A stretch of DNA of 64,000 nt, from the NCBI GenBank assembly GCA_965205505.1, contig CBDBHB010000006.1, positions 434,111-498,110 on the forward strand, in the 5' to 3' direction. Origin of the DNA: Acidobacteriota bacterium. Its GTDB lineage: Bacteria > Acidobacteriota > UBA890 > WLXD01. The position numbers and the translations under genes are program-made. The number at the start of each line of letters is the position of its first letter. The first letter of the stretch is position 1. The notes beneath the pieces are model-generated. The model saw nothing but the letters and a program-made list of their open reading frames with translations, was not told where the DNA came from and made no database searches. This document shows positions 2,748-62,799 of the stretch, in pieces.

Positions 2748-3235
2748 CCCATTCGACATCGCAGTACCGGAGTGGACAGAGGCTGGCGCTGGTGGCCCTG
2801 CGGATGCTGGTTGGCTGGCACTTGCTGTACGAGGGCATCGCCAAGCTGCAGAATTCTTACTGGACTTCGGCCGGGTTCGTTTCCGAGGCGCAGGGGCCGT
2901 TTGCGGGGTGGTTCCTGTGGTTGGTGTCGGAACCGGGGCGCCTACAGCTGGTCGACCTGCTCAACAAGTGGGGCTTGACGCTCATCGGCCTGGCCCTGGT
3001 CGTCGGTCTGGGGTCACGCACGGCGTCGTTGCTGGGCATGGTCCTGCTAGGACTCTACTACGTCGCCAACCCGCCCCTGCCCGGACTGGACACGGCGATT
3101 CCCGCCGAGGGGTCGTACATGATCGTCAACAAGACCTTGATCGAGATTGCGGCGCTGTTGGTCATCAGGGCCTTCCCTACCGATGACGTGGTGGGCCTCG
3201 GTCGACTTCTGCGACGCGAGAGGGAATCGGCATGA
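2744..3235 (+). CDS. DoxX family membrane protein
   Basis: Internal Met start in an ATGA overlap with the apbE stop. Hydrophobic multi-TM sequence (LALVALRMLVGWHLLYEGIAKL...) typical of DoxX. Confidence 0.65.
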   Translation: MTHSTSQYRSGQRLALVALRMLVGWHLLYEGIAKLQNSYWTSAGFVSEAQGPFAGWFLWLVSEPGRLQLVDLLNKWGLTLIGLALVVGLGSRTASLLGMVLLGLYYVANPPLPGLDTAIPAEGSYMIVNKTLIEIAALLVIRAFPTDDVVGLGRLLRRERESA

Positions 3236-4848
3236 GCATGGACGACAACGAGCAGACGATCCACGACGCCGGCAACGCGCCCGACAAGAGCAGAGTTCAC
3301 GGCAAGGCGCTCGACCGCCGCGACCTCTTCAAGGGGCTGGCATCGCTGCCGGTTCTCGGGACGCTCGGATGGGGGGCGTGGCGTAAGAAAACGCTTGCTG
3401 ACGAGCGCCGAAACCAGGTGCTGGCCGAGCTCGGGGTGAGCGGTGATGCGCCAGCGATCATCGACCACGCACAAAGCCGGCCACCTGCCGATCGCATCAA
3501 CCTCGGGATTATCGGCTTCGGCGGCCGGGGCGAGACGCTGATGCGCGGCGCGGGGTTCGCTCACCCTGAAGTTACCGAGGAGTGGCGGCAGGCCGCGGCC
3601 GAGGATCCGCGTAACACTCGACTCTCCGAGTTCATGCTGCAGGGCGATCTGAACGTGGCGTTTACCGCCGTCTGCGACGTGTTCGACGTGCGCGCCGAAC
3701 GTGCTATCGCAGCGTCAGCTAACGAGACGCGCCCGGGCGGTGACTCGGGCTCCCGGCCCGCCTACCGGTTCCGCCACTACGAGGAGCTGCTCAATTCCCC
3801 CGATGTCGACGCCGTGCTGATCGGCACCCCCGATCACTGGCATGCGCCGATGACAATCGCCGCCGCCGCTGCCGGCAAGCACGTCTACTGCGAGAAGGCG
3901 ATGACGCGCACCGAGGAAGAGGTCCTGCCGATGGTGGAGGCAGTCAAGGCCTCGGGCATCAAGTTCCAGCTCGGTCACCAGAATCGTCAGCTCGAGAGCC
4001 ACGAAAAGGCGCGCGAGATCATCGAGAAGGAGATCCTCGGCAAGGTGACGCTGGTGGAAACAACCACCAACCGTAATGATCCCTGGGGCGCTTGGGTATG
4101 GGACATTCATCCCGAAGGCAACCCCGACACCATCGATTGGGAGCAGTTCCAGGGCAACGCCGCCAAGCAAGTGCCTTTCAACCTCGAGCGGTTCTTTCGA
4201 TGGCGCTGCTGGTACGACTACGGCACCGGGTTGGCGGGCGATTTGCTGTCGCATGAGTACGATGCCCTCAACCAGATCATGAACCTGGGAATCCCGAAGT
4301 CTGCGGTCGCCTCGGGCGGCGTTTACTTCTTCAAGGATGGCCGCGATGTGCCCGATACCTTCCAGGTGGTCTACGAGTATCCGGAGCGCGACCTTACCGT
4401 CGTGTACAGCGCCACGCTGGCGAGCGGACGCGGACGCGGCAAGGTGTTCATGGGTCACGACGCCGCGATGGAAGTCGGCAGCGGCGTGCGGGTGATCGCC
4501 GACGCGCAGTCGACACGCTATGCGGATCTGATCGAGCGCGACGTTGTTGATGTCGATCGGGCTCTGCTTACGTATCGACCAGGCTTCAAGGGGCTCGACG
4601 CCGTGACCACCGCCACCGAGGAGTACTTCGCCAGTCGCGGATTGTTATTCACCTACCAAGGCGGCCGACGCGTCAGCACGCATTGGCTGCATATCAAGGA
4701 CTGGCTCGATACGGTGCGCCATGGCGGCGAGCCGAGCTGCAACATCGATCGCGGCTTCGAGGAAGCGATGACCTGTCATATGGCCACGAAGTCCTACCAG
4801 CTCGCCCGCAGGGTCGAGTGGGACCCGGTCCAGCAGAAGATCGTGTAG
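3232..4848 (+). CDS. Gfo/Idh/MocA family oxidoreductase with twin-arginine (Tat) signal
   Basis: 538 aa. RRDLFKGLASLPVLG Tat motif, then Rossmann NAD-binding region (INLGIIGFGGRG) and Gfo/Idh/MocA C-terminal domain. Start overlaps the doxX stop (ATGA). Confidence 0.8.
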   Translation: MSMDDNEQTIHDAGNAPDKSRVHGKALDRRDLFKGLASLPVLGTLGWGAWRKKTLADERRNQVLAELGVSGDAPAIIDHAQSRPPADRINLGIIGFGGRGETLMRGAGFAHPEVTEEWRQAAAEDPRNTRLSEFMLQGDLNVAFTAVCDVFDVRAERAIAASANETRPGGDSGSRPAYRFRHYEELLNSPDVDAVLIGTPDHWHAPMTIAAAAAGKHVYCEKAMTRTEEEVLPMVEAVKASGIKFQLGHQNRQLESHEKAREIIEKEILGKVTLVETTTNRNDPWGAWVWDIHPEGNPDTIDWEQFQGNAAKQVPFNLERFFRWRCWYDYGTGLAGDLLSHEYDALNQIMNLGIPKSAVASGGVYFFKDGRDVPDTFQVVYEYPERDLTVVYSATLASGRGRGKVFMGHDAAMEVGSGVRVIADAQSTRYADLIERDVVDVDRALLTYRPGFKGLDAVTTATEEYFASRGLLFTYQGGRRVSTHWLHIKDWLDTVRHGGEPSCNIDRGFEEAMTCHMATKSYQLARRVEWDPVQQKIV

Positions 4849-33529: not shown

Positions 33530-34102
33530 ATGCCCCTCGAAGTCGCGCCGACGGACATCCCCGATGTGCTCTTGATCCGGTCGGAGCTGCTCCGCGATAG
33601 CCGTGGTGGCTTCCTCGAGACCTTCCGGCACTCCGTGCTTGCCGCGCAGGGAGCTGACGTTCGTGTAGCACAGGTCAACGAGTCCATCTCGGAGGCCAAG
33701 GTGCTGCGTGGGTTGCACTATCAGCTAGAGCCAAATGGGCAGGGCAAGCTGGTGCGGGTGTTGCGCGGCGCCGTGTTTGACGTTGCCCTGGATGTGCGGC
33801 GCGGTTCGCCCTGGTTCGGCCAGCACGTCGCGATCGAGCTCAGCGCCGAGAACCGAAGCCTGCTATGGATCCCGCCGGGATTCGCACACGGATTCTGCGC
33901 GCTCGAGGACGACACCCACTTCCTCTACGTGCAAACAGCCGAGTATGCCCCCGAATCGGAAGCTGGAGTCAACGCCTTCGATCCGGCGTTGGGTCTTCAG
34001 TGGCCGTTCCCACGCGACGACGTGATCCTGTCGGACAAGGATCTGGAGCTGCCGTCACTATCGTCCGCCCGCCTGAACTTCGACTATCGTGCAAGGCCGT
34101 GA
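33530..34102 (+). CDS. rfbC: dTDP-4-dehydrorhamnose 3,5-epimerase
   Basis: 190 aa from MPLEVAPTDIPDVLLI. RmlC cupin motifs (RGLHYQ, LWIPPGFAHGF). Confidence 0.85.
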   Translation: MPLEVAPTDIPDVLLIRSELLRDSRGGFLETFRHSVLAAQGADVRVAQVNESISEAKVLRGLHYQLEPNGQGKLVRVLRGAVFDVALDVRRGSPWFGQHVAIELSAENRSLLWIPPGFAHGFCALEDDTHFLYVQTAEYAPESEAGVNAFDPALGLQWPFPRDDVILSDKDLELPSLSSARLNFDYRARP

Positions 34103-34115
34103 TCGCGCTCGCAGG

Positions 34116-34394
34116 CTAGCAGGCCGTGGTGAAAGTGTGGTGGGTCTGGTTACGGCGAGTTGGGGCCAGATGCAAGGCGGCCTGACACTGGCGATGACCT
34201 AGCCATCGTCGAGGAAGGCCAACGTCGCAGATGGCCCCAAATCGCCGTAACCCTTCGGGCGACAGGGGGTTGCGCGCGTATCCTGCGTCGTTCCTCGTCA
34301 ACGATGGGGTAACCATCGCCTCCTCCTCTCTCCTTGCCTGCACTTCGCAAGACCCTGTCGCCAGACCCACCACACTTTCACCACGGCCTGCTAG
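34116..34394. repeat. 279-bp structured element bounded by perfect 34-bp terminal inverted repeats (MITE/REP-like)
   Basis: ctagcaggccgtggtgaaagtgtggtgggtctgg (34116-34149) is the exact reverse complement of 34361-34394. A nested 19-bp near-perfect IR lies at 34150-34168 / 34232-34250. The element fills the convergent gap between rfbC and mlaF. Confidence 0.6.
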
Positions 34395-34409
34395 GCACGT
34401 TCCCCACGT

Positions 34410-35180
34410 CTACATCATCTTGATCGGCCCGTCCGCGCGCCCGTTGATGAACTGCTGGATGACCGCGTTGTCGCTGGCCTGGATCTGCTGCGGAGTGCCG
34501 GCTTCCTCGATCTTGCCCTCATGAAGCATCGCGATTCGATCGGCGATCTTGTATGCCGACACCATGTCGTGCGTGATGGTCAGCGAAGTCGCGTTAAGCC
34601 GCGTGTTGAGGTCGACGATCAGATCGTTGATCTGGTCGGCAAGAATAGGGTCGAGGCCGCTCGTGGGCTCATCGTAGAGAATGATCTCTGGCTCGAGCGC
34701 AATGGCCCGAGCCAGCCCCACGCGCTTCTTCATGCCGCCCGAAAGCTCGGCAGGCACCTTGCCCTCGATGCCCTTGAGACCCACCCAGCGGAGCACCTCA
34801 CGCACCCGCTCCTGCACGCGCGCCTCGGGCCAGTCGCGTTGTTGGCGTAGCGCGAAAGCAACATTGTCGCCGACGTTCATCGAGTCAAACAGTGCGGCGT
34901 ACTGAAAGAGCATGCCCATGCGTCGGCGGAGCCTGGAGAGAGCATCACGTCCGAGCCCGGGAACCGACGACCCATCGACAACCAAGTCGCCGTGATCGGG
35001 TGCCAGCAAACCGATCACGTGCTTGAGCAGCACGCTCTTGCCGGTACCCGAGCTGCCGATAATCACCAGCGATTCGCCGCGGGCAACGTCGAGATCGACA
35101 CCGCGCAATACATGCAGTTCGCCGAAGCTCTTGTGCAGATCGCTGATACGGATGAATGACTGTTCGCTCACATGTCCCAT
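34410..35180 (-). CDS. ABC transporter ATP-binding protein (MlaF-like)
   Basis: Start MGHVSEQSFIRISDLHKSF. Walker A GSSGTGKS, signature LSGGMKKRV, Walker B ILYDEPTSGLD. The 644-aa listed ORF is an artefactual upstream extension. Confidence 0.8.
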   Translation of the reverse strand: MGHVSEQSFIRISDLHKSFGELHVLRGVDLDVARGESLVIIGSSGTGKSVLLKHVIGLLAPDHGDLVVDGSSVPGLGRDALSRLRRRMGMLFQYAALFDSMNVGDNVAFALRQQRDWPEARVQERVREVLRWVGLKGIEGKVPAELSGGMKKRVGLARAIALEPEIILYDEPTSGLDPILADQINDLIVDLNTRLNATSLTITHDMVSAYKIADRIAMLHEGKIEEAGTPQQIQASDNAVIQQFINGRADGPIKMM

Positions 35181-41226: not shown

Positions 41227-41302
41227 CGCGGCACCGTCCACCCTGCGATCAGCGGCCGGTGCAACCGAACCACGGCCTGCTAGGAGCACTTCGCTTCGCC
41301 GC

Positions 41303-42161: not shown

Positions 42162-42992
42162 TCAGTCCTCCTTCCGAGGTTCGCCTTCGGCGACGCCATC
42201 GGAGCTGTCATCAGCCGGCGGCGTTTCGCCTGCCGGCTCGTCGTCGGAATCATCGTCGGCCGAGTCGTCGTCAACCACCACTGCCTCGTCAGCGGAAGCC
42301 GTGTCATCGCCGCCGAGTGCAACAGTCTCGTCAGTCGGAGCCGTGTCATTGTCGTCGATTGCGACAGTCTCGTCAGCCGAAGCCGTGTCGTCGTCGATTG
42401 CGACAGTCTCGTCAGCCGAGGCCGTGTCGTCGTCGATCGCGACAGTCTCGTCAGCCGAAGCCGTGTCGTCGTCGATCGCGACAGTCTCGTCAGCCGAAGC
42501 CGCGTCGTCATCGATTGCGACGGTCTCGTCAGCCGAAGCCGTGTCATCAGTCTCCGCCAACTCATCGCGCTCCGACACCGACGTTTCCGCCTCGGCGCGC
42601 TTCGCTGCGGCGCGCTGATCGGCTGCTTCCATCTGCGCCTTGGCCAACTCTTCATCTACCGGGCCCCGCTCAGCGAGCGCCTGCCGCGCAGCTGTCTCTT
42701 GCACATCGCTCAGACGGACCGCCATCTCCCGAAGGATCGATTCGCGGATCTTGGTGTAGGCGCGGAACTCGCCCGGCAGCGTCGCGGGTCCCGTCGCGTA
42801 GATCAGCAGGTAGACGCCTTCGGTGTGCTTGCCGATGGGGTACGCAAGCTTGCGGCGGCCCCACCTGTTGACGTCGATGACCTCGCCACCGGACGCGGCG
42901 AGCTGCTGTCGTAGCCCGCCGATGACCGCGTCGATTCCCTCGTCAGTTTCATCGGGAGACGCGATCACCAGGATCTCGTACAGGTTATTCAT
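42162..42992 (-). CDS. rpsF: 30S ribosomal protein S6 with long repetitive acidic C-terminal extension
   Basis: Start MNNLYEILVIASPDE after AGGAGA RBS. S6 core of about 100 aa, then about 170 aa of tail including five or more tandem DDTASADETVAID units. Confidence 0.85.
   Translation of the reverse strand: MNNLYEILVIASPDETDEGIDAVIGGLRQQLAASGGEVIDVNRWGRRKLAYPIGKHTEGVYLLIYATGPATLPGEFRAYTKIRESILREMAVRLSDVQETAARQALAERGPVDEELAKAQMEAADQRAAAKRAEAETSVSERDELAETDDTASADETVAIDDDAASADETVAIDDDTASADETVAIDDDTASADETVAIDDDTASADETVAIDDNDTAPTDETVALGGDDTASADEAVVVDDDSADDDSDDEPAGETPPADDSSDGVAEGEPRKED
42296..42545. repeat. tandem 39-nt direct repeats (about six copies) inside the rpsF 3' region
   Basis: Reiterated ...cgacagtctcgtcagccgaagccgtgtcgtcgtcgat... 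units encoding the 13-aa acidic repeat. Confidence 0.6.
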
Positions 42993-47401: not shown

Positions 47402-47480
47402 CGAGCCGTGCGGCTGAGGTGCGGTTTGTGATCCGAATATCGGAGCAATGCTCGCCCTCGATGGACTAGCAGGCCTAAAG

Positions 47481-53746: not shown

Positions 53747-53897
53747 ACCACTAGCAGGACGGGGGCGCTCAAAAAACCTCGACGAAACACGCCGGCCGGG
53801 GCTCTTACCGTGCAGAGAACGCGTTGTGCCCGGGCGCGGGAAGCGTTCGGTGGGCCTGCGCTCGGGTGCACGCGCGCTCCGCACGGGAGGCAGTACG

Positions 53898-55286: not shown

Positions 55287-55424
55287 TGTCCTGACTCAGG
55301 GCACTAGCAGGCCGAGCTGTCGATCCCGCGAGCATCACCGCAATGCCGCCTCGCCGCTCCGCGCCCCGCCAAGCCCCGGCGGTCGCGTTGGCAGACGACG
55401 GACACGAACGATACCTTTTCGCGC

Positions 55425-56951: not shown

Positions 56952-57481
56952 TCATCGAGGTCGACATCGAGGGTGAAGACGGCGTGCGCCGGTACCGGGT
57001 ACGGCGGGACCGCGGCGCCATCCGTATGTGGCGGCTTTCCGTCGCCGACTCCGATGAAAACGCTTTTGAGGTTCAGATCGATTGGCGGATGCCCGAGCCT
57101 GGCAACTACTCCCTGCTCGTCGACGGCCGCTCATATGATGTACACGTCGACGAGATCGATGAGGACCCCGAGCTGCTGGAGCTGCACCTGCTAGGCGCTG
57201 TGGTCCGCGCGCGGGCCTCGGACGCCCGACGACGCCGAATCGCCCCGACGGGCACCGAACCGGACGGCACGGTCTCTGTGACGGCACCGATGCCGGGGCG
57301 TGTGCTCAAGGTGCTCGCTCCGCGAGGCACCGCGGTAAGGCGAGGTGATGGCATCATCGTTCTCGATGCCATGAAGATGGAGAACGAGCTCAAGGCGCCG
57401 CGCGATGGCACCGTGGTAGACGTGGTCGTCGAAGAAGGGGCGGGCGTGGAGCGCGGCGCCGTCTTGGCGATCATCGAATGA
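56948..57481 (+). CDS. biotin carboxyl carrier protein (biotin/lipoyl attachment domain)
   Basis: C-terminal biotinyl domain with AMKMEN motif. Overlaps the accC stop. Confidence 0.8.
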   Translation: MIIEVDIEGEDGVRRYRVRRDRGAIRMWRLSVADSDENAFEVQIDWRMPEPGNYSLLVDGRSYDVHVDEIDEDPELLELHLLGAVVRARASDARRRRIAPTGTEPDGTVSVTAPMPGRVLKVLAPRGTAVRRGDGIIVLDAMKMENELKAPRDGTVVDVVVEEGAGVERGAVLAIIE

Positions 57482-59491: not shown

Positions 59492-60495
59492 GACCCTTTC
59501 TGGGCTGTAGCATGGGCGATCCCGCCGGGATCGGCCCGCAGATCCTGCTCCGCGCAGCTGCCGAGCTCGCGACTGCCGATTGCCTCCTTATCGGTGATGC
59601 TGCCGTATTCTCCAAGCACGCGGAATGCGCCGGTTTGAACCCTGATAGCTTCCGCGTGATCGACGGGATCGACGCCGCGCAGCGCGCCCGCAGCACGGGT
59701 GATCGCGGTCCGTGGATGCTCCCGTGCACCGCCGCCGCGGAGGGCTTCCGCCCCGGGCACGCGCAAGGAACGCAGGGCCCCGCGGCGCTCGACAGCATTA
59801 ACCAGGGCGAGCGCCTGGTACGCAGCGGTGAGGTCGACGCCCTGGTCACTGCCCCGGTCAACAAAGACCTCATCGCTACTGTTGAGCCGCGCTTCCGAGG
59901 ACATACCGAGTACCTTGCTGAGCGCGCCGGCGTGGACACACCGATCATGCTCTTCGCCGGGCCTCGCCCGCACATCGCATTGCTCACCACCCATCTGCCC
60001 ACCGCAACCGCGATCTCCCTCATTCGAACCGACTCCGTCGATGCGATGCTGCGCAGGTTGCACATGCGGTGGGCGTCGTGCTTCGGGAAACCCCCGGTCA
60101 TCGGCGTCGCGGCGCTCAATCCGCACGCCGGCGAGCAGGGACGGCTGGGCACCGAAGAAGCCCGCATTCTGTATCCGGCCATCGCCGCCACCCGTGCCGA
60201 CGGCATCGATGCTCGAGGCCCCTATGCCGCCGACTCCATCTTCCTCCGCTCTGAGCTCGACGTGATTCTCGCGCTCTACCATGACCAGGGCACCATCCTG
60301 GCGAAGCGCGCGCCCTGGCCCACGGTGAACCTGACGCTGGGCCTGCCTTACATTCGCACCTCGCCGGATCACGGCACGGCGTACGACCTTGCGGCATCCG
60401 GTACGGCCGATCATCGACCGATACTGGCGGCGATGGAGCTGGCGGCCGAACTAGCGAGGGGTGGAGGGGGGCGGAGAACACACCCATCCCCTTAG
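59488..60495 (+). CDS. pdxA: 4-hydroxythreonine-4-phosphate dehydrogenase
   Basis: Start MRPFLGCSMGDPAGIGP in an ATGA overlap with holB. PdxA motifs (HTEYL, NPHAGE). The last 9 codons are supplied by an inverted-repeat element. Confidence 0.85.
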   Translation: MRPFLGCSMGDPAGIGPQILLRAAAELATADCLLIGDAAVFSKHAECAGLNPDSFRVIDGIDAAQRARSTGDRGPWMLPCTAAAEGFRPGHAQGTQGPAALDSINQGERLVRSGEVDALVTAPVNKDLIATVEPRFRGHTEYLAERAGVDTPIMLFAGPRPHIALLTTHLPTATAISLIRTDSVDAMLRRLHMRWASCFGKPPVIGVAALNPHAGEQGRLGTEEARILYPAIAATRADGIDARGPYAADSIFLRSELDVILALYHDQGTILAKRAPWPTVNLTLGLPYIRTSPDHGTAYDLAASGTADHRPILAAMELAAELARGGGGRRTHPSP

Positions 60496-60609
60496 GGCAA
60501 CGTCACCGTTCTTGGTCGATCAGCGTCCTAGCTCGCGCGTCTCGGGCGGAGGTTGGCGAACGGAGGGTGTGGCGAGGTTGCCTACAGGGGATGGGTGTGT
60601 TCTCCGCCC
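60469..60609. repeat. perfect 23-bp inverted repeat pair separated by 95 nt, overlapping the pdxA stop
   Basis: gggcggagaacacacccatcccc (60469-60491) is the exact reverse complement of 60587-60609. Confidence 0.5.
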
Positions 60610-61028
60610 AGCACCGTTTTCGCTATCGGCGCCGCTTCAATGGCCCGGCATCGGGGCGTTGATCCGACACCGTAGGGGACTCTTGCTACTCGACGCCGAA
60701 GTACGGCGGCGGGGAGCGTCGACTCCAACACCCCGCCCACAAACAAGGACCCCAGAGGGGTCCGAGGACTGCGGCTCGCCCTCGGTGCCGCGAACGTCAG
60801 CGCGTTCAACACCGCCTCCTCTTCAGCAGGAGTCCCCCTGTAGGTTCTGAGTCGGGAGCGGGAGCAGTCTCCCCCACGGTGTGGCTAGCGCGATGGGTGG
60901 CGGTGTGCGTGAAGACAGCCTCGCCACACCGACCGTTCGGAGGCCGACGCCCGAGACGCGCGAGCAACCCAGCCGATCTATCACCAAGCGGTGACGCTGT
61001 CACTCACGCACACCGCCACCCATCGCGC

Positions 61029-61491
61029 CTACCTACGCCGTCGCAGAGCCTGCTCCACATCCCGCTCCACCGCCTCGCGCTTCAGGATGTCGCGCTTGTC
61101 ATAGTTTTTCTTGCCCCGCGCCACCGCGATCTCCACCTTGGCGCGACCGTTGCGGAAGTAGATGCGTAGAGGTACGAGGGTGAAGCCCCTTTCTATCTGG
61201 CGACCGAACACACGATCGATCTCACGCCGCTTCAGCAAGAGTTTGCGGACGCGCTCCGGGTCGTGCTGATTGTGCTTGCCGGCTGCGGGATAGGGGCCGA
61301 TGTGGAGGTTGTGCAGCCAGACCTCGCCGTCTGTGATCGAGGCGTAGGCATCCTTGAGGTTGGCATTTCCGAGGCGTAGAGACTTCACTTCGGAGCCCAG
61401 CAGGACGACGCCGGCTTCGTACGTATCGAGGAGCTCGTAGTTCTTACGCGCCCGACGATTGTTCGCGACCACCTTTAGGTCCTCGGCCATA
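61029..61491 (-). CDS. smpB: SsrA-binding protein
   Basis: Start MAEDLKVVANNRRARKNYE. SmpB core (…GSEVKSLR…LHNLHIGPY…) and basic C-terminal tail. Confidence 0.85.
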
Positions 61492-61494
61492 AGC

Positions 61495-62799
61495 CTACAG
61501 ACGCACGAGGTTCGGCGGCGCTTTCCCTTCGACGACGTTGCGCGTATCCACAACAAGCGGCGACGCAGCAACAACGCCCGCCCAGTCGATATTGCTGTGG
61601 TCGGTGCCCACGACGACACAGTCCGCCTCGGCACAGGCCTCGATCAGCCCGTCGATGGAATGCAGTGGACCGAGACCTTCGATGTTTTCGAGCGCCGGCA
61701 CGAACGGATTATGGTACGAGACGTCGGCGCCCTTGGCAGCCAGCAGCTGCATGATGTCGATGGCCGGCGATTCGCGCGTATCATCAACATCTCGCTTGTA
61801 CGCCACGCCGATCATCACGACGCGTGAGCCGTTAACGCTCTTCCGTTGATCATTGAGCGCATCAACTACCTTCTGCACGACGTGGTGCGGCATGCCCGCG
61901 TTGATCTCGGAGGCCACCTCGATGAGGCGGGCGTGATAGTCGAGGGTGCGTACCTTCCAGGTCAGCTAGTGCGGATCGATCGGTATGCAGTGTCCACCGA
62001 GCCCGGGCCCCGGGTAGAAGGGCATGAAGCCGAATGGCTTGGTAGCGGCGGCACGGATCACCTCCCACGAGTCGATGCCAAGCCGGTCGCATATCAGCGC
62101 CATCTCGTTGGCCAAACCGATGTTCACGGCGCGAAACGTGTTCTCGAGCAGCTTCACGAGCTCAGCGACGCGCGGCGAGGACACAGCATGCACCGTACCC
62201 ACGATGGTGCCATAGAGCGCCGTCGCCACATGGGTGCATTTCGTCGTCATGACCCCGATGACCTTGGGCGTGTTTTCGAGCGTGAAAGTCTCGTTTCCAG
62301 GATCGATGCGCTCGGGGGAGAAGGCGAGGAAATAGTCGCGCCCGGCTTGGCGTCCGTGGGTCTCCAGCCTCGGCAACAGCACCTCTTCGGTGGTACCCGG
62401 GTACGTGGTGCTCTCGAGAACCACGAGCATGTCGTCGTGCATCGCCTCGGCTACGCGATCGGCCGACGCGACGACATACGAAATGTCAGGATCGCGGGTC
62501 TTGCTAAGCGGCGTCGGCACGCAGATGTGGACGCTGTCTGCGGTGGCGATGACGGCCGCATCGGTGGTTGCCTCGACCCGTCCGGCCTCGACCTGAGCGC
62601 GCAGGCGCTCTGAAGCGGTGTCGGGTACGTACGACTCGCCCCGGCGGATCGCCTCGACCTTGGAGTTGTCGATGTCCAGCCCGGTTACCCGGAAGCCCGC
62701 CTCCGCAAAGCTCACCGCCAGCGGCAAGCCCACGTATCCGAGCCCCATGACGCAGACATGGGCGCTGCGATCTTGGATACGAGTGAGGAGATCGGACAT
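61495..62799 (-). CDS. nucleotide-sugar (UDP-N-acetyl-D-mannosamine / UDP-glucose family) dehydrogenase, interrupted by one in-frame TAG at 61966-61968
   Basis: Start MSDLLTRIQDRSAHVCVMGLGYVGLP (NAD-binding). Catalytic-Cys motif GGHCIPIDPH is followed by TAG, where the family has Tyr. The frame continues …LTWKVRTLDYHARLIEVASEINAGMP… to the C-terminal UDP-binding domain. Confidence 0.7.

Follow-up and report, generated by a model that had tools for sequence, protein, structure and literature searches.

A probable CTAG-targeting MITE of IS5/IS1182-like lineage, with a paired hairpin core, between rfbC and mlaF in an Acidobacteriota genome

Introduction

A 279-bp element at positions 34,116–34,394 of the window, the whole 64,000-nt stretch of Acidobacteriota DNA analysed here, is very probably a non-autonomous mobile element (MITE) of an IS5/IS1182-like lineage that would insert at CTAG. 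Short motifs elsewhere in the window are most likely remnants of older copies, and the interior of the element holds a paired hairpin module that may act in cis. MITEs in general have been reviewed (PMC10969869). The features of a MITE that can be tested in a sequence are all present: the element is shorter than ~500 bp, non-coding and multi-copy, it is bounded by terminal inverted repeats (TIRs), it is associated with target duplication and empty sites, and it shares its termini with an IS. A search of the literature on IS1182 with CTAG, on MITEs of Acidobacteria and on the sequences of the element yielded no description of this MITE family.

The analysis supplies a clearly bounded pair of MITE and IS for the Vicinamibacteria-type Acidobacteriota, which are abundant in soil and for which few mobile elements have been described. 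Insertion at CTAG onto TAG stop codons would place a hairpin of ~280 nt in many 3′ UTRs while leaving the genes unbroken, providing a natural experiment on 3′-UTR structure. The core of the element is more conserved than its termini, and this across different IS5-type ends, which points to a cis requirement or a host effect unexplained by current models of MITE transposition. In practical terms, such repeats break short-read assemblies, and in metagenomes the family could be used to mark strains.

The element and its position

The element lies between two convergent genes: rfbC (dTDP-4-dehydrorhamnose 3,5-epimerase; 33,530–34,102, + strand; Pfam dTDP_sugar_isom), whose stop codon is 13 nt before it, and a gene for an mlaF-like ABC ATPase (34,410–35,180, − strand), whose stop codon is 15 nt after it. 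An initial annotation, made from the same DNA, had the element exactly filling this gap; the convergent location stands, but with 13 and 15 nt left over the 279 bp nearly, rather than exactly, fill the ~307–308 bp available (279 of 307). The exact MlaF protein is also found on long-read metagenome contigs (ENA, some NCBI), with the same gap of ~307–308 bp.

Both TIRs are 34 nt long including CTAG, and the perfect match between them claimed at the outset is correct: the left one, 34,116–34,149 (+ strand), reads CTAGCAGGCCGTGGTGAAAGTGTGGTGGGTCTGG, and the right one, 34,361–34,394 (− strand), is its exact reverse complement. The first ~21 nt (CAGGCCGTGGTGAAAGT) are common to an autonomous IS described below. 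The left CTAG (34,116–34,119) and the right CTAG (34,391–34,394) are taken to be the two copies of a duplicated target, be it CTAG or its central TA, from the CTAG flanks of 24 out of 24 full-length copies and of the IS, together with the length of the empty site. Allowing mismatches, the outer inverted repeat reaches 47 nt at 87%, and it encloses two nested inverted repeats, 34,148–34,173/34,227–34,252 (26 nt, 88%) and 34,255–34,274/34,346–34,365 (20 nt, 85%), one of which corresponds to the internal 19-bp repeat seen earlier. The predicted fold of either strand is a three-way, Y-shaped junction in which an outer stem carries two arms of ~105 nt; its energy is −178 kcal/mol, and comparison with 200 dinucleotide shuffles gives z = −14.7 and −13.7 for the two strands. 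The element is without transposase-coding capacity, and its ORFs are destroyed by compensatory substitutions among copies, such as ATG to ACG in L080.

A very stable hairpin on both strands, set between convergent genes, would also suit a unique bidirectional terminator or attenuator that evolved in place between rfbC and mlaF, and bidirectional termination had been suggested as a role for the copies. The sequence lends this role no support: both strands lack a T-run after the stem, and a promoter and terminator scan of 33,900–34,650 on both strands returned no promoter-like and no terminator-like site. A local origin is further contradicted by dozens of near-identical copies at unrelated loci, by 26 classified flanks that face gene 5′ ends, and by the spacer of only 30–32 bp in close relatives, all of which make it highly improbable.

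A repeat family in Vicinamibacteria

When one genome per GTDB species was scanned for the 18-nt terminus, it turned up in at least 98 stretches, nearly all of them in MAGs of Acidobacteriota/Vicinamibacteria (Vicinamibacterales). Among the matches listed, 27 stretches belong to MAG CAXWPH01, 7 to CBDFKD01 and 4 to OZ244217.1, and a few come from bins labelled Planctomycetota, Gemmatimonadota and Myxococcota; many matches sit at contig ends. Neither the element nor its termini are therefore unique to this locus, and the repeat family that had been proposed is real.

At least 24 of the matches listed are full-length copies of 276–282 bp, all at distinct loci and all arranged as CTAG-element-CTAG, the outer flanks of the 24 being mutually unrelated beyond the CTAG. 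The target-site duplication for which the initial annotation advised looking is thus seen as CTAG on both sides of every full-length copy. Shorter relatives of 47–175 bp also exist, consisting of a single module or of two TIRs alone. Within the window's own subfamily, 19 copies have a mean pairwise identity of 94.5% and are each 91–99% identical to their consensus (98.2% for the window copy), which fits amplification from a master copy. In viral contigs, a scan with the shorter 14-nt terminus gave 68 single, chance-like matches.

Several copies (L086, L093, L103 and L111) of a 166-bp subfamily that has one module and the same 18-nt terminus come from MAG JAJDEV01, a bin labelled Planctomycetota. 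Either the subfamily has spread horizontally, or the bin or its label is at fault.

An autonomous partner

A candidate source of transposase is found in OZ244217.1, which also carries the MITE copies L080, L098 and L155. Here, L108:796–2300 is a 1505-bp element with MITE-type termini, CTAG flanks and one intact ORF of 472 aa; its ends read CTAG|CAGGCCGTGG(C/T)GAAAGT... and ...ACTTTCACCACGGCCTG|CTAG, and the stop codon of the ORF is the terminal TAG. The product matches Pfam DUF772 (E = 2.6e-19; 69.4 bits, which passes) and, weakly and below the cut-offs, DDE_Tnp_1_6 and DDE_Tnp_1. Its best NCBIfam model is IS1182, at 158.6 bits under a curated equivalog cut-off of 270, followed by IS5_4, at 79.7 bits with a cut-off of 140. 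On these scores, the transposase can be placed in the IS5/IS1182 superfamily, outside the thresholds of both curated families.

The L108 element is one of many. L101 holds a further IS copy, whose transposase is 64% identical to that of L108, and homologues at different sites in L179–L183 (66–71% identical) have ends of the form CTAG|CAG(C/G)(C/G)CGTGGTGAAAGT...ACCACGGGCTG|CTAG. More than 8000 homologues of the transposase were found at E < 1e-30, typically on contigs of 1.5–2 kb, as expected for a multi-copy IS. Sharing between MITE and IS is limited to the ~21 terminal nucleotides, and the interior of the MITE derives from none of the IS found. No transposase of the L108 family was found in the 64-kb window, nor, among the matches listed, in the stretches from CAXWPH01, the closest genome. 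Pairs of TIRs at IS-like spacings of 1.1–1.4 kb in L096, L119, L148 and L157 were rejected as further IS candidates, each being a real end plus a chance 14-mer inside genes.

At L101:1200–1320, one CTAG shared by both sides connects the right end of the IS (…CCACGGGCTGCTAG) with the left end, of the same type, of another element, and beyond this junction lies a different transposase-like ORF on the opposite strand.

The full-length copies, the autonomous IS with the same ends and the empty orthologous sites described in the next section together bear out the reading as a MITE that the initial annotation had offered. A transposase with DUF772 at its N-terminus and a catalytic domain of the DDE_Tnp_1 type, with IS1182 and IS5 as its nearest curated families, would recognise the shared termini of ~21 nt, and, as the comparison suggests, the MITE would be moved in trans by this partner. 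Insertion would take place into CTAG, which is duplicated to give CTAG-element-CTAG at each copy.

IS5 itself duplicates YTAR, most often CTAG (PMC5493358). The CTAG flanks of the partner IS and of its homologues are in keeping with this. MITEs of the IS5 superfamily (IS5, IS1182, IS1031) resemble the present element in their small, non-coding, multi-copy form, in having the TIRs of a DDE IS, in the CTAG (YTAR) target, in their intergenic location and in their stable fold-back. They differ in that the partner here scores under the IS1182 and IS5_4 cut-offs, and the interior is a conserved two-module core, not a deletion derivative of an IS that was found.

Other known systems are less similar. 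Correia elements (NEMIS, in Neisseria) and ERIC/IRU (in enterobacteria) are palindromic MITEs of 100–300 bp that lie at gene ends, use a TA-containing target and are co-transcribed with neighbouring genes, with reported effects on mRNA processing and stability. The present element is like them in being a palindromic MITE at gene ends, but it shares no sequence similarity with them and differs in host phylum, in TIRs and in the 4-nt context of CTAG. RUP is a MITE of the IS630/Tc1-mariner type, and IS630 uses CTAG as its insertion site, of which TA is duplicated. Copies of such MITEs are likewise flanked by C-TA-G, whereas the transposase that shares its termini with the present family has DUF772 and DDE_Tnp_1 and no IS630-type domain.

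The initial annotation had also named a REP/BIME-like family, that is, inverted REP units (or a REPIN-type arrangement) mobilised by a RAYT (TnpA-REP, HUH) transposase. Intergenic, palindromic, multi-copy repeats, with short solo motifs occurring beside inverted doublets, are common to both. REP units are short palindromes that carry a GTAG/CGTC tag, go with a RAYT gene and leave their target unduplicated. In contrast, the termini here belong to an IS whose transposase is of the DDE kind and not HUH/RAYT; every copy has a CTAG duplication; none of the solo motifs is a palindrome; and 279 bp with 34-nt TIRs far exceeds a REP unit. This assignment can be given up with little hesitation.

Target choice and empty sites

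In relatives, the orthologous spacer between mlaF and rfbC is 32 bp in L173 (MlaF 88% identical) and 30 bp in L177 (90%). Taking the element and one CTAG out of the window predicts a spacer of 32 bp. Aligned with each other, the window reads acgtggggaacgtgc-CTAG-cctgcgagcgcga and a relative gtgttgggaacgcgt-CTGC-tgtcaggccgcga; the four letters in question are CTGC and CTAC at the two empty sites instead of CTAG, and the pre-insertion target is thus deduced from length. The 30–32-bp spacers would therefore represent the empty site, in which CTAG is not intact in these more distant genomes, and the window copy would have entered a 32-bp spacer between the convergent genes. Duplication of the 4-bp CTAG and duplication of TA within CTAG are indistinguishable from sequence alone.

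The same spacer has been a repeated target. In L172, a 37-bp internally deleted copy (4769–4805) starts at the TAG stop codon of mlaF, L178 has CCTGCTAG, and L174 has a decayed TIR-like stretch; since these family remnants are independent and occur in three related lineages, the mlaF-rfbC spacer appears to be a site that is hit repeatedly. Copies also target one another: in L144 and L077 a copy is inserted at a CTAG inside another copy, and in L084, L117 and L101 (L144 is also so classed) elements abut through one shared CTAG.

Gene ends near copies were classified by a GC3-based frame call on the flanks, by which 31 element ends face a gene 3′ end and 26 a gene 5′ end. In about half of the former (15/31), the stop codon of the gene is the TAG of the terminal CTAG. 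CTAG is scarce in the window, with 54 sites where base composition predicts 211, a depletion of about four-fold. Clustering at gene ends may thus be explained by C-TAG stops being among the few CTAGs available, and by a duplication that keeps the stop. Targets would often be such stops or short intergenic spacers, so that copies gather at gene ends and genes stay intact.

Two observations touch on the age of insertions and on the length of the duplication. L122:3525–3803 and L090:7–53, which belong to two subfamilies, apparently occupy the same orthologous site in two MAG species, the flanks having 78% identity over 367 nt; either an old insertion has survived speciation, or one CTAG has been used repeatedly. 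A shared insertion would imply long persistence, leaving room for a host-level role. In the metagenome elements of type A, L197, L244 and L260 (termini GGGCCTGT...), the duplications are apparently 3-bp TAA/TTA, not CTAG, and the superfamily may accordingly include different duplication lengths.

Short motifs elsewhere in the window

The terminal motif had been noted at four other places in the window, and it is present at all of them. The 14-mer CTAGCAGGCCGTGG recurs exactly once, at 41,270–41,283 (− strand), between the stop codon of rplI and the start of a carbamoyltransferase gene, as a solo terminus with no partner arm and no module. The window has five occurrences of the shorter CTAGCAGGCC, where 0.09 would be expected, and none of 100 shuffles matched this count; two of its sites are solo fragments on the + strand, at 47,466–47,475 between tRNA-Gln and prs, and at 55,304–55,313, 18 nt past a TAG stop codon. 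The fourth place, 53,751–53,758 (+), holds CTAGCAGG 5 nt past a TAG stop codon. CTAGCAGG is also read on one strand at 8 of the 54 CTAG sites of the window, including 3041–3050 and 57,185–57,194.

These motifs cannot be counted as copies of the element, as had been supposed. They overlap the terminus by only 8–14 nt, the inner part of the TIR is not found elsewhere in the window, and no second full copy or hairpin module is present in its 64 kb. L077 offers a guide to what they are, in the form of a 16-nt fragment of the terminus that lies beside a deletion and is inserted at the CTAG inside another copy. The solo motifs at 41,270, 47,466, 53,751 and 55,304 appear to be the same kind of object, so that the 8–14-nt CTAGCAGGCC(GTGG) motifs are most likely remnants, the decayed or truncated ends of older copies, which would arise by adjacent or internal deletion followed by decay.

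The hairpin module

The interior of the element is built from two modules of ~110 nt in opposite orientations, giving the order TIR, module (+ sense), 5-nt linker, module (− sense), TIR; the element aligns to its own reverse complement at 67%. Module L (34,145–34,257, sense on +) scores 115.9 bits with covariance model R1, and module R (34,253–34,365, inverted, sense on −), which is more degenerate in this subfamily, 76.8 bits. The layout of module L is a P2 stem, AGATGCAAGGCG, a 4-bp P3, GAC..GGCGATG, a loop, CATCGTCGAGGA, P3′, AACG.CGCAGATG and P2′.

Diverged copies of ~75% identity (L080, L098, L100, L168 and L092:3669–3947) keep three motifs, AGATGCAAGGCG, GAC-N3-GGCGATG-loop-CATCGTCGAGGAG and AACGC.GCAGATG, while their P2 and P3 stems carry compensatory changes, in 33/95 pairs for the whole element and 23/35 for the module. 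For 55 distinct genomic modules, the paired share of cells is 91.4% and double changes are present in 28/35 pairs, a covariation that 0/500 shuffles reach and for which slid controls give 33–51%. A metagenome scan with the core pattern of the module returned at least 120 stretches, and 111 distinct modules from metagenomes have 94.4% of cells paired and double changes in 30/35 pairs. Conservation is higher in the unpaired motifs than in the stems, where neutral decay with palindrome correction would leave the reverse, and this argues for function.

The module is not tied to one set of ends. L092:3669–3947 has the same modules within different outer TIR sequences, and the termini of metagenome modules include YTAR|GGG(C/T)CTGT..AATAA, the IS5-like GGGTTCGCGCAAGAATAAG, CTAG|GAGCCYGTCCGAGAATTAGG, CAGGYTGCTGAAAAA and also GAGCCYGTCCGAGAATT... 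All paired module-bearing metagenome elements among the matches listed are 178–423 bp long; no transposase was found beside modules in 711 kb of metagenome loci, nor any IS with a module at its ends. The presence of the module inside MITEs with differing IS5-type termini suggests that the core has been conserved across families whose ends diverged.

The most likely reading, held with modest confidence, is that the module acts in cis for the propagation of the element itself. It could do so as fold-back DNA that joins both ends of a very short element; alternatively, it could be a putative binding site for a host or transposase factor.

The same features have been weighed under a different reading, which has the element mainly as a vehicle for a functional structured RNA or ssDNA motif acting on the host, for instance by stabilising the 3′ UTR, by offering a site for RNase processing or as a regulatory RNA co-transcribed with the upstream gene, the MITE termini merely spreading the module. 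The palindromic two-module design would then give a sense copy in transcripts from either side. Conserved unpaired motifs between covarying stems favour such a role, as does the recurrence of the module in MITEs with different termini (GGGYCTGT.., GAGCCYGTCCGAGAATT.., CAGGYTGCTGAAAAA.. and L092:3669–3947). Every sense copy is recovered by R1, at 75–118 bits, against 22–39 bits for the antisense strand, and a G.T pair in P4 is kept in 49/55 modules of the genome sample, which was selected by TIR; in the metagenomes the conservation of P4 is circular, its sequence having been part of the search pattern. Co-transcription of the element is probable where it faces gene 3′ ends, about half of which stop in its CTAG, and L122 and L090, from two species, apparently keep one insertion at an orthologous position.

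The composition of the stems speaks against a vehicle for RNA. Outside P4, ~97% of paired cells are Watson-Crick and G.U is barely above A.C, which is not typical of RNA; in the variable stems, the counts are 49 G.U against 31 A.C cells, and 11 against 10 pairs. Stems so nearly pure in Watson-Crick pairs are expected of a DNA palindrome that is maintained by template-switch correction or because a hairpin is required in the DNA. The counts do not demonstrate strand-specific selection on RNA in the variable stems, which was considered as a candidate. Rfam 15 returned only a tRNA at the gathering threshold in the window, and nothing below E = 1 in the region of the element when searched to E ≤ 10; for five loci with diverged copies, the only match was a sub-threshold one to a plant miRNA-precursor model. 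The absence of promoter-like and terminator-like signals from the scan of the region adds to this, and the orthologous loci of close relatives are without the element, which is hence dispensable at this locus. A role chiefly as a vehicle is, on balance, unlikely.

Action in cis remains the favoured reading, and a broader proposal that takes in both kinds of role can be put forward tentatively. The ~110-nt module, defined by AGATGCAAGGCG, GAC..GGCGATG-loop-CATCGTCGAGGAG and AACGC.GCAGATG, might be an undescribed functional nucleic-acid structure that has been passed among MITE families with differing IS5-type termini, in Acidobacteriota as well as in other bacteria of soil and sediment. It might serve as a cis ‘transposition enhancer’ of IS5-superfamily MITEs, or as a 3′-UTR RNA element placed at TAG stops genome-wide; this is a possibility less probable than not.

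A coding role for the module, suggested by the ATG in AGATGCAAGG and by GAGGAG as a Shine-Dalgarno sequence, was rejected, as ORF lengths are unequal and the ATG, missing from R modules, is not a conserved feature.

Other repeats in the window

A scan of the window for tRNA and tmRNA found only tRNA-Gln. Two related hairpin elements of ~141 nt lie in inverted orientation, 278 bp apart, at 60,469–60,609 and 60,888–61,028, between the end of a pdxA-like ORF and smpB (61,029–61,634, − strand). Arm lengths are 39 nt (87%) and 25 nt (100%), and the folds reach −100 and −88 kcal/mol; over ~90 nt the two elements are 74% alike, and both start beside CTAGCG. They have no match in any locus retrieved, and neither ARAGORN nor Rfam identifies them as tmRNA. 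Downstream of the rplI/rpsR cluster, in what is apparently a coding region, 42,228–42,587 contains seven tandem copies of a 39-nt unit, the central copies being 93–96% identical.
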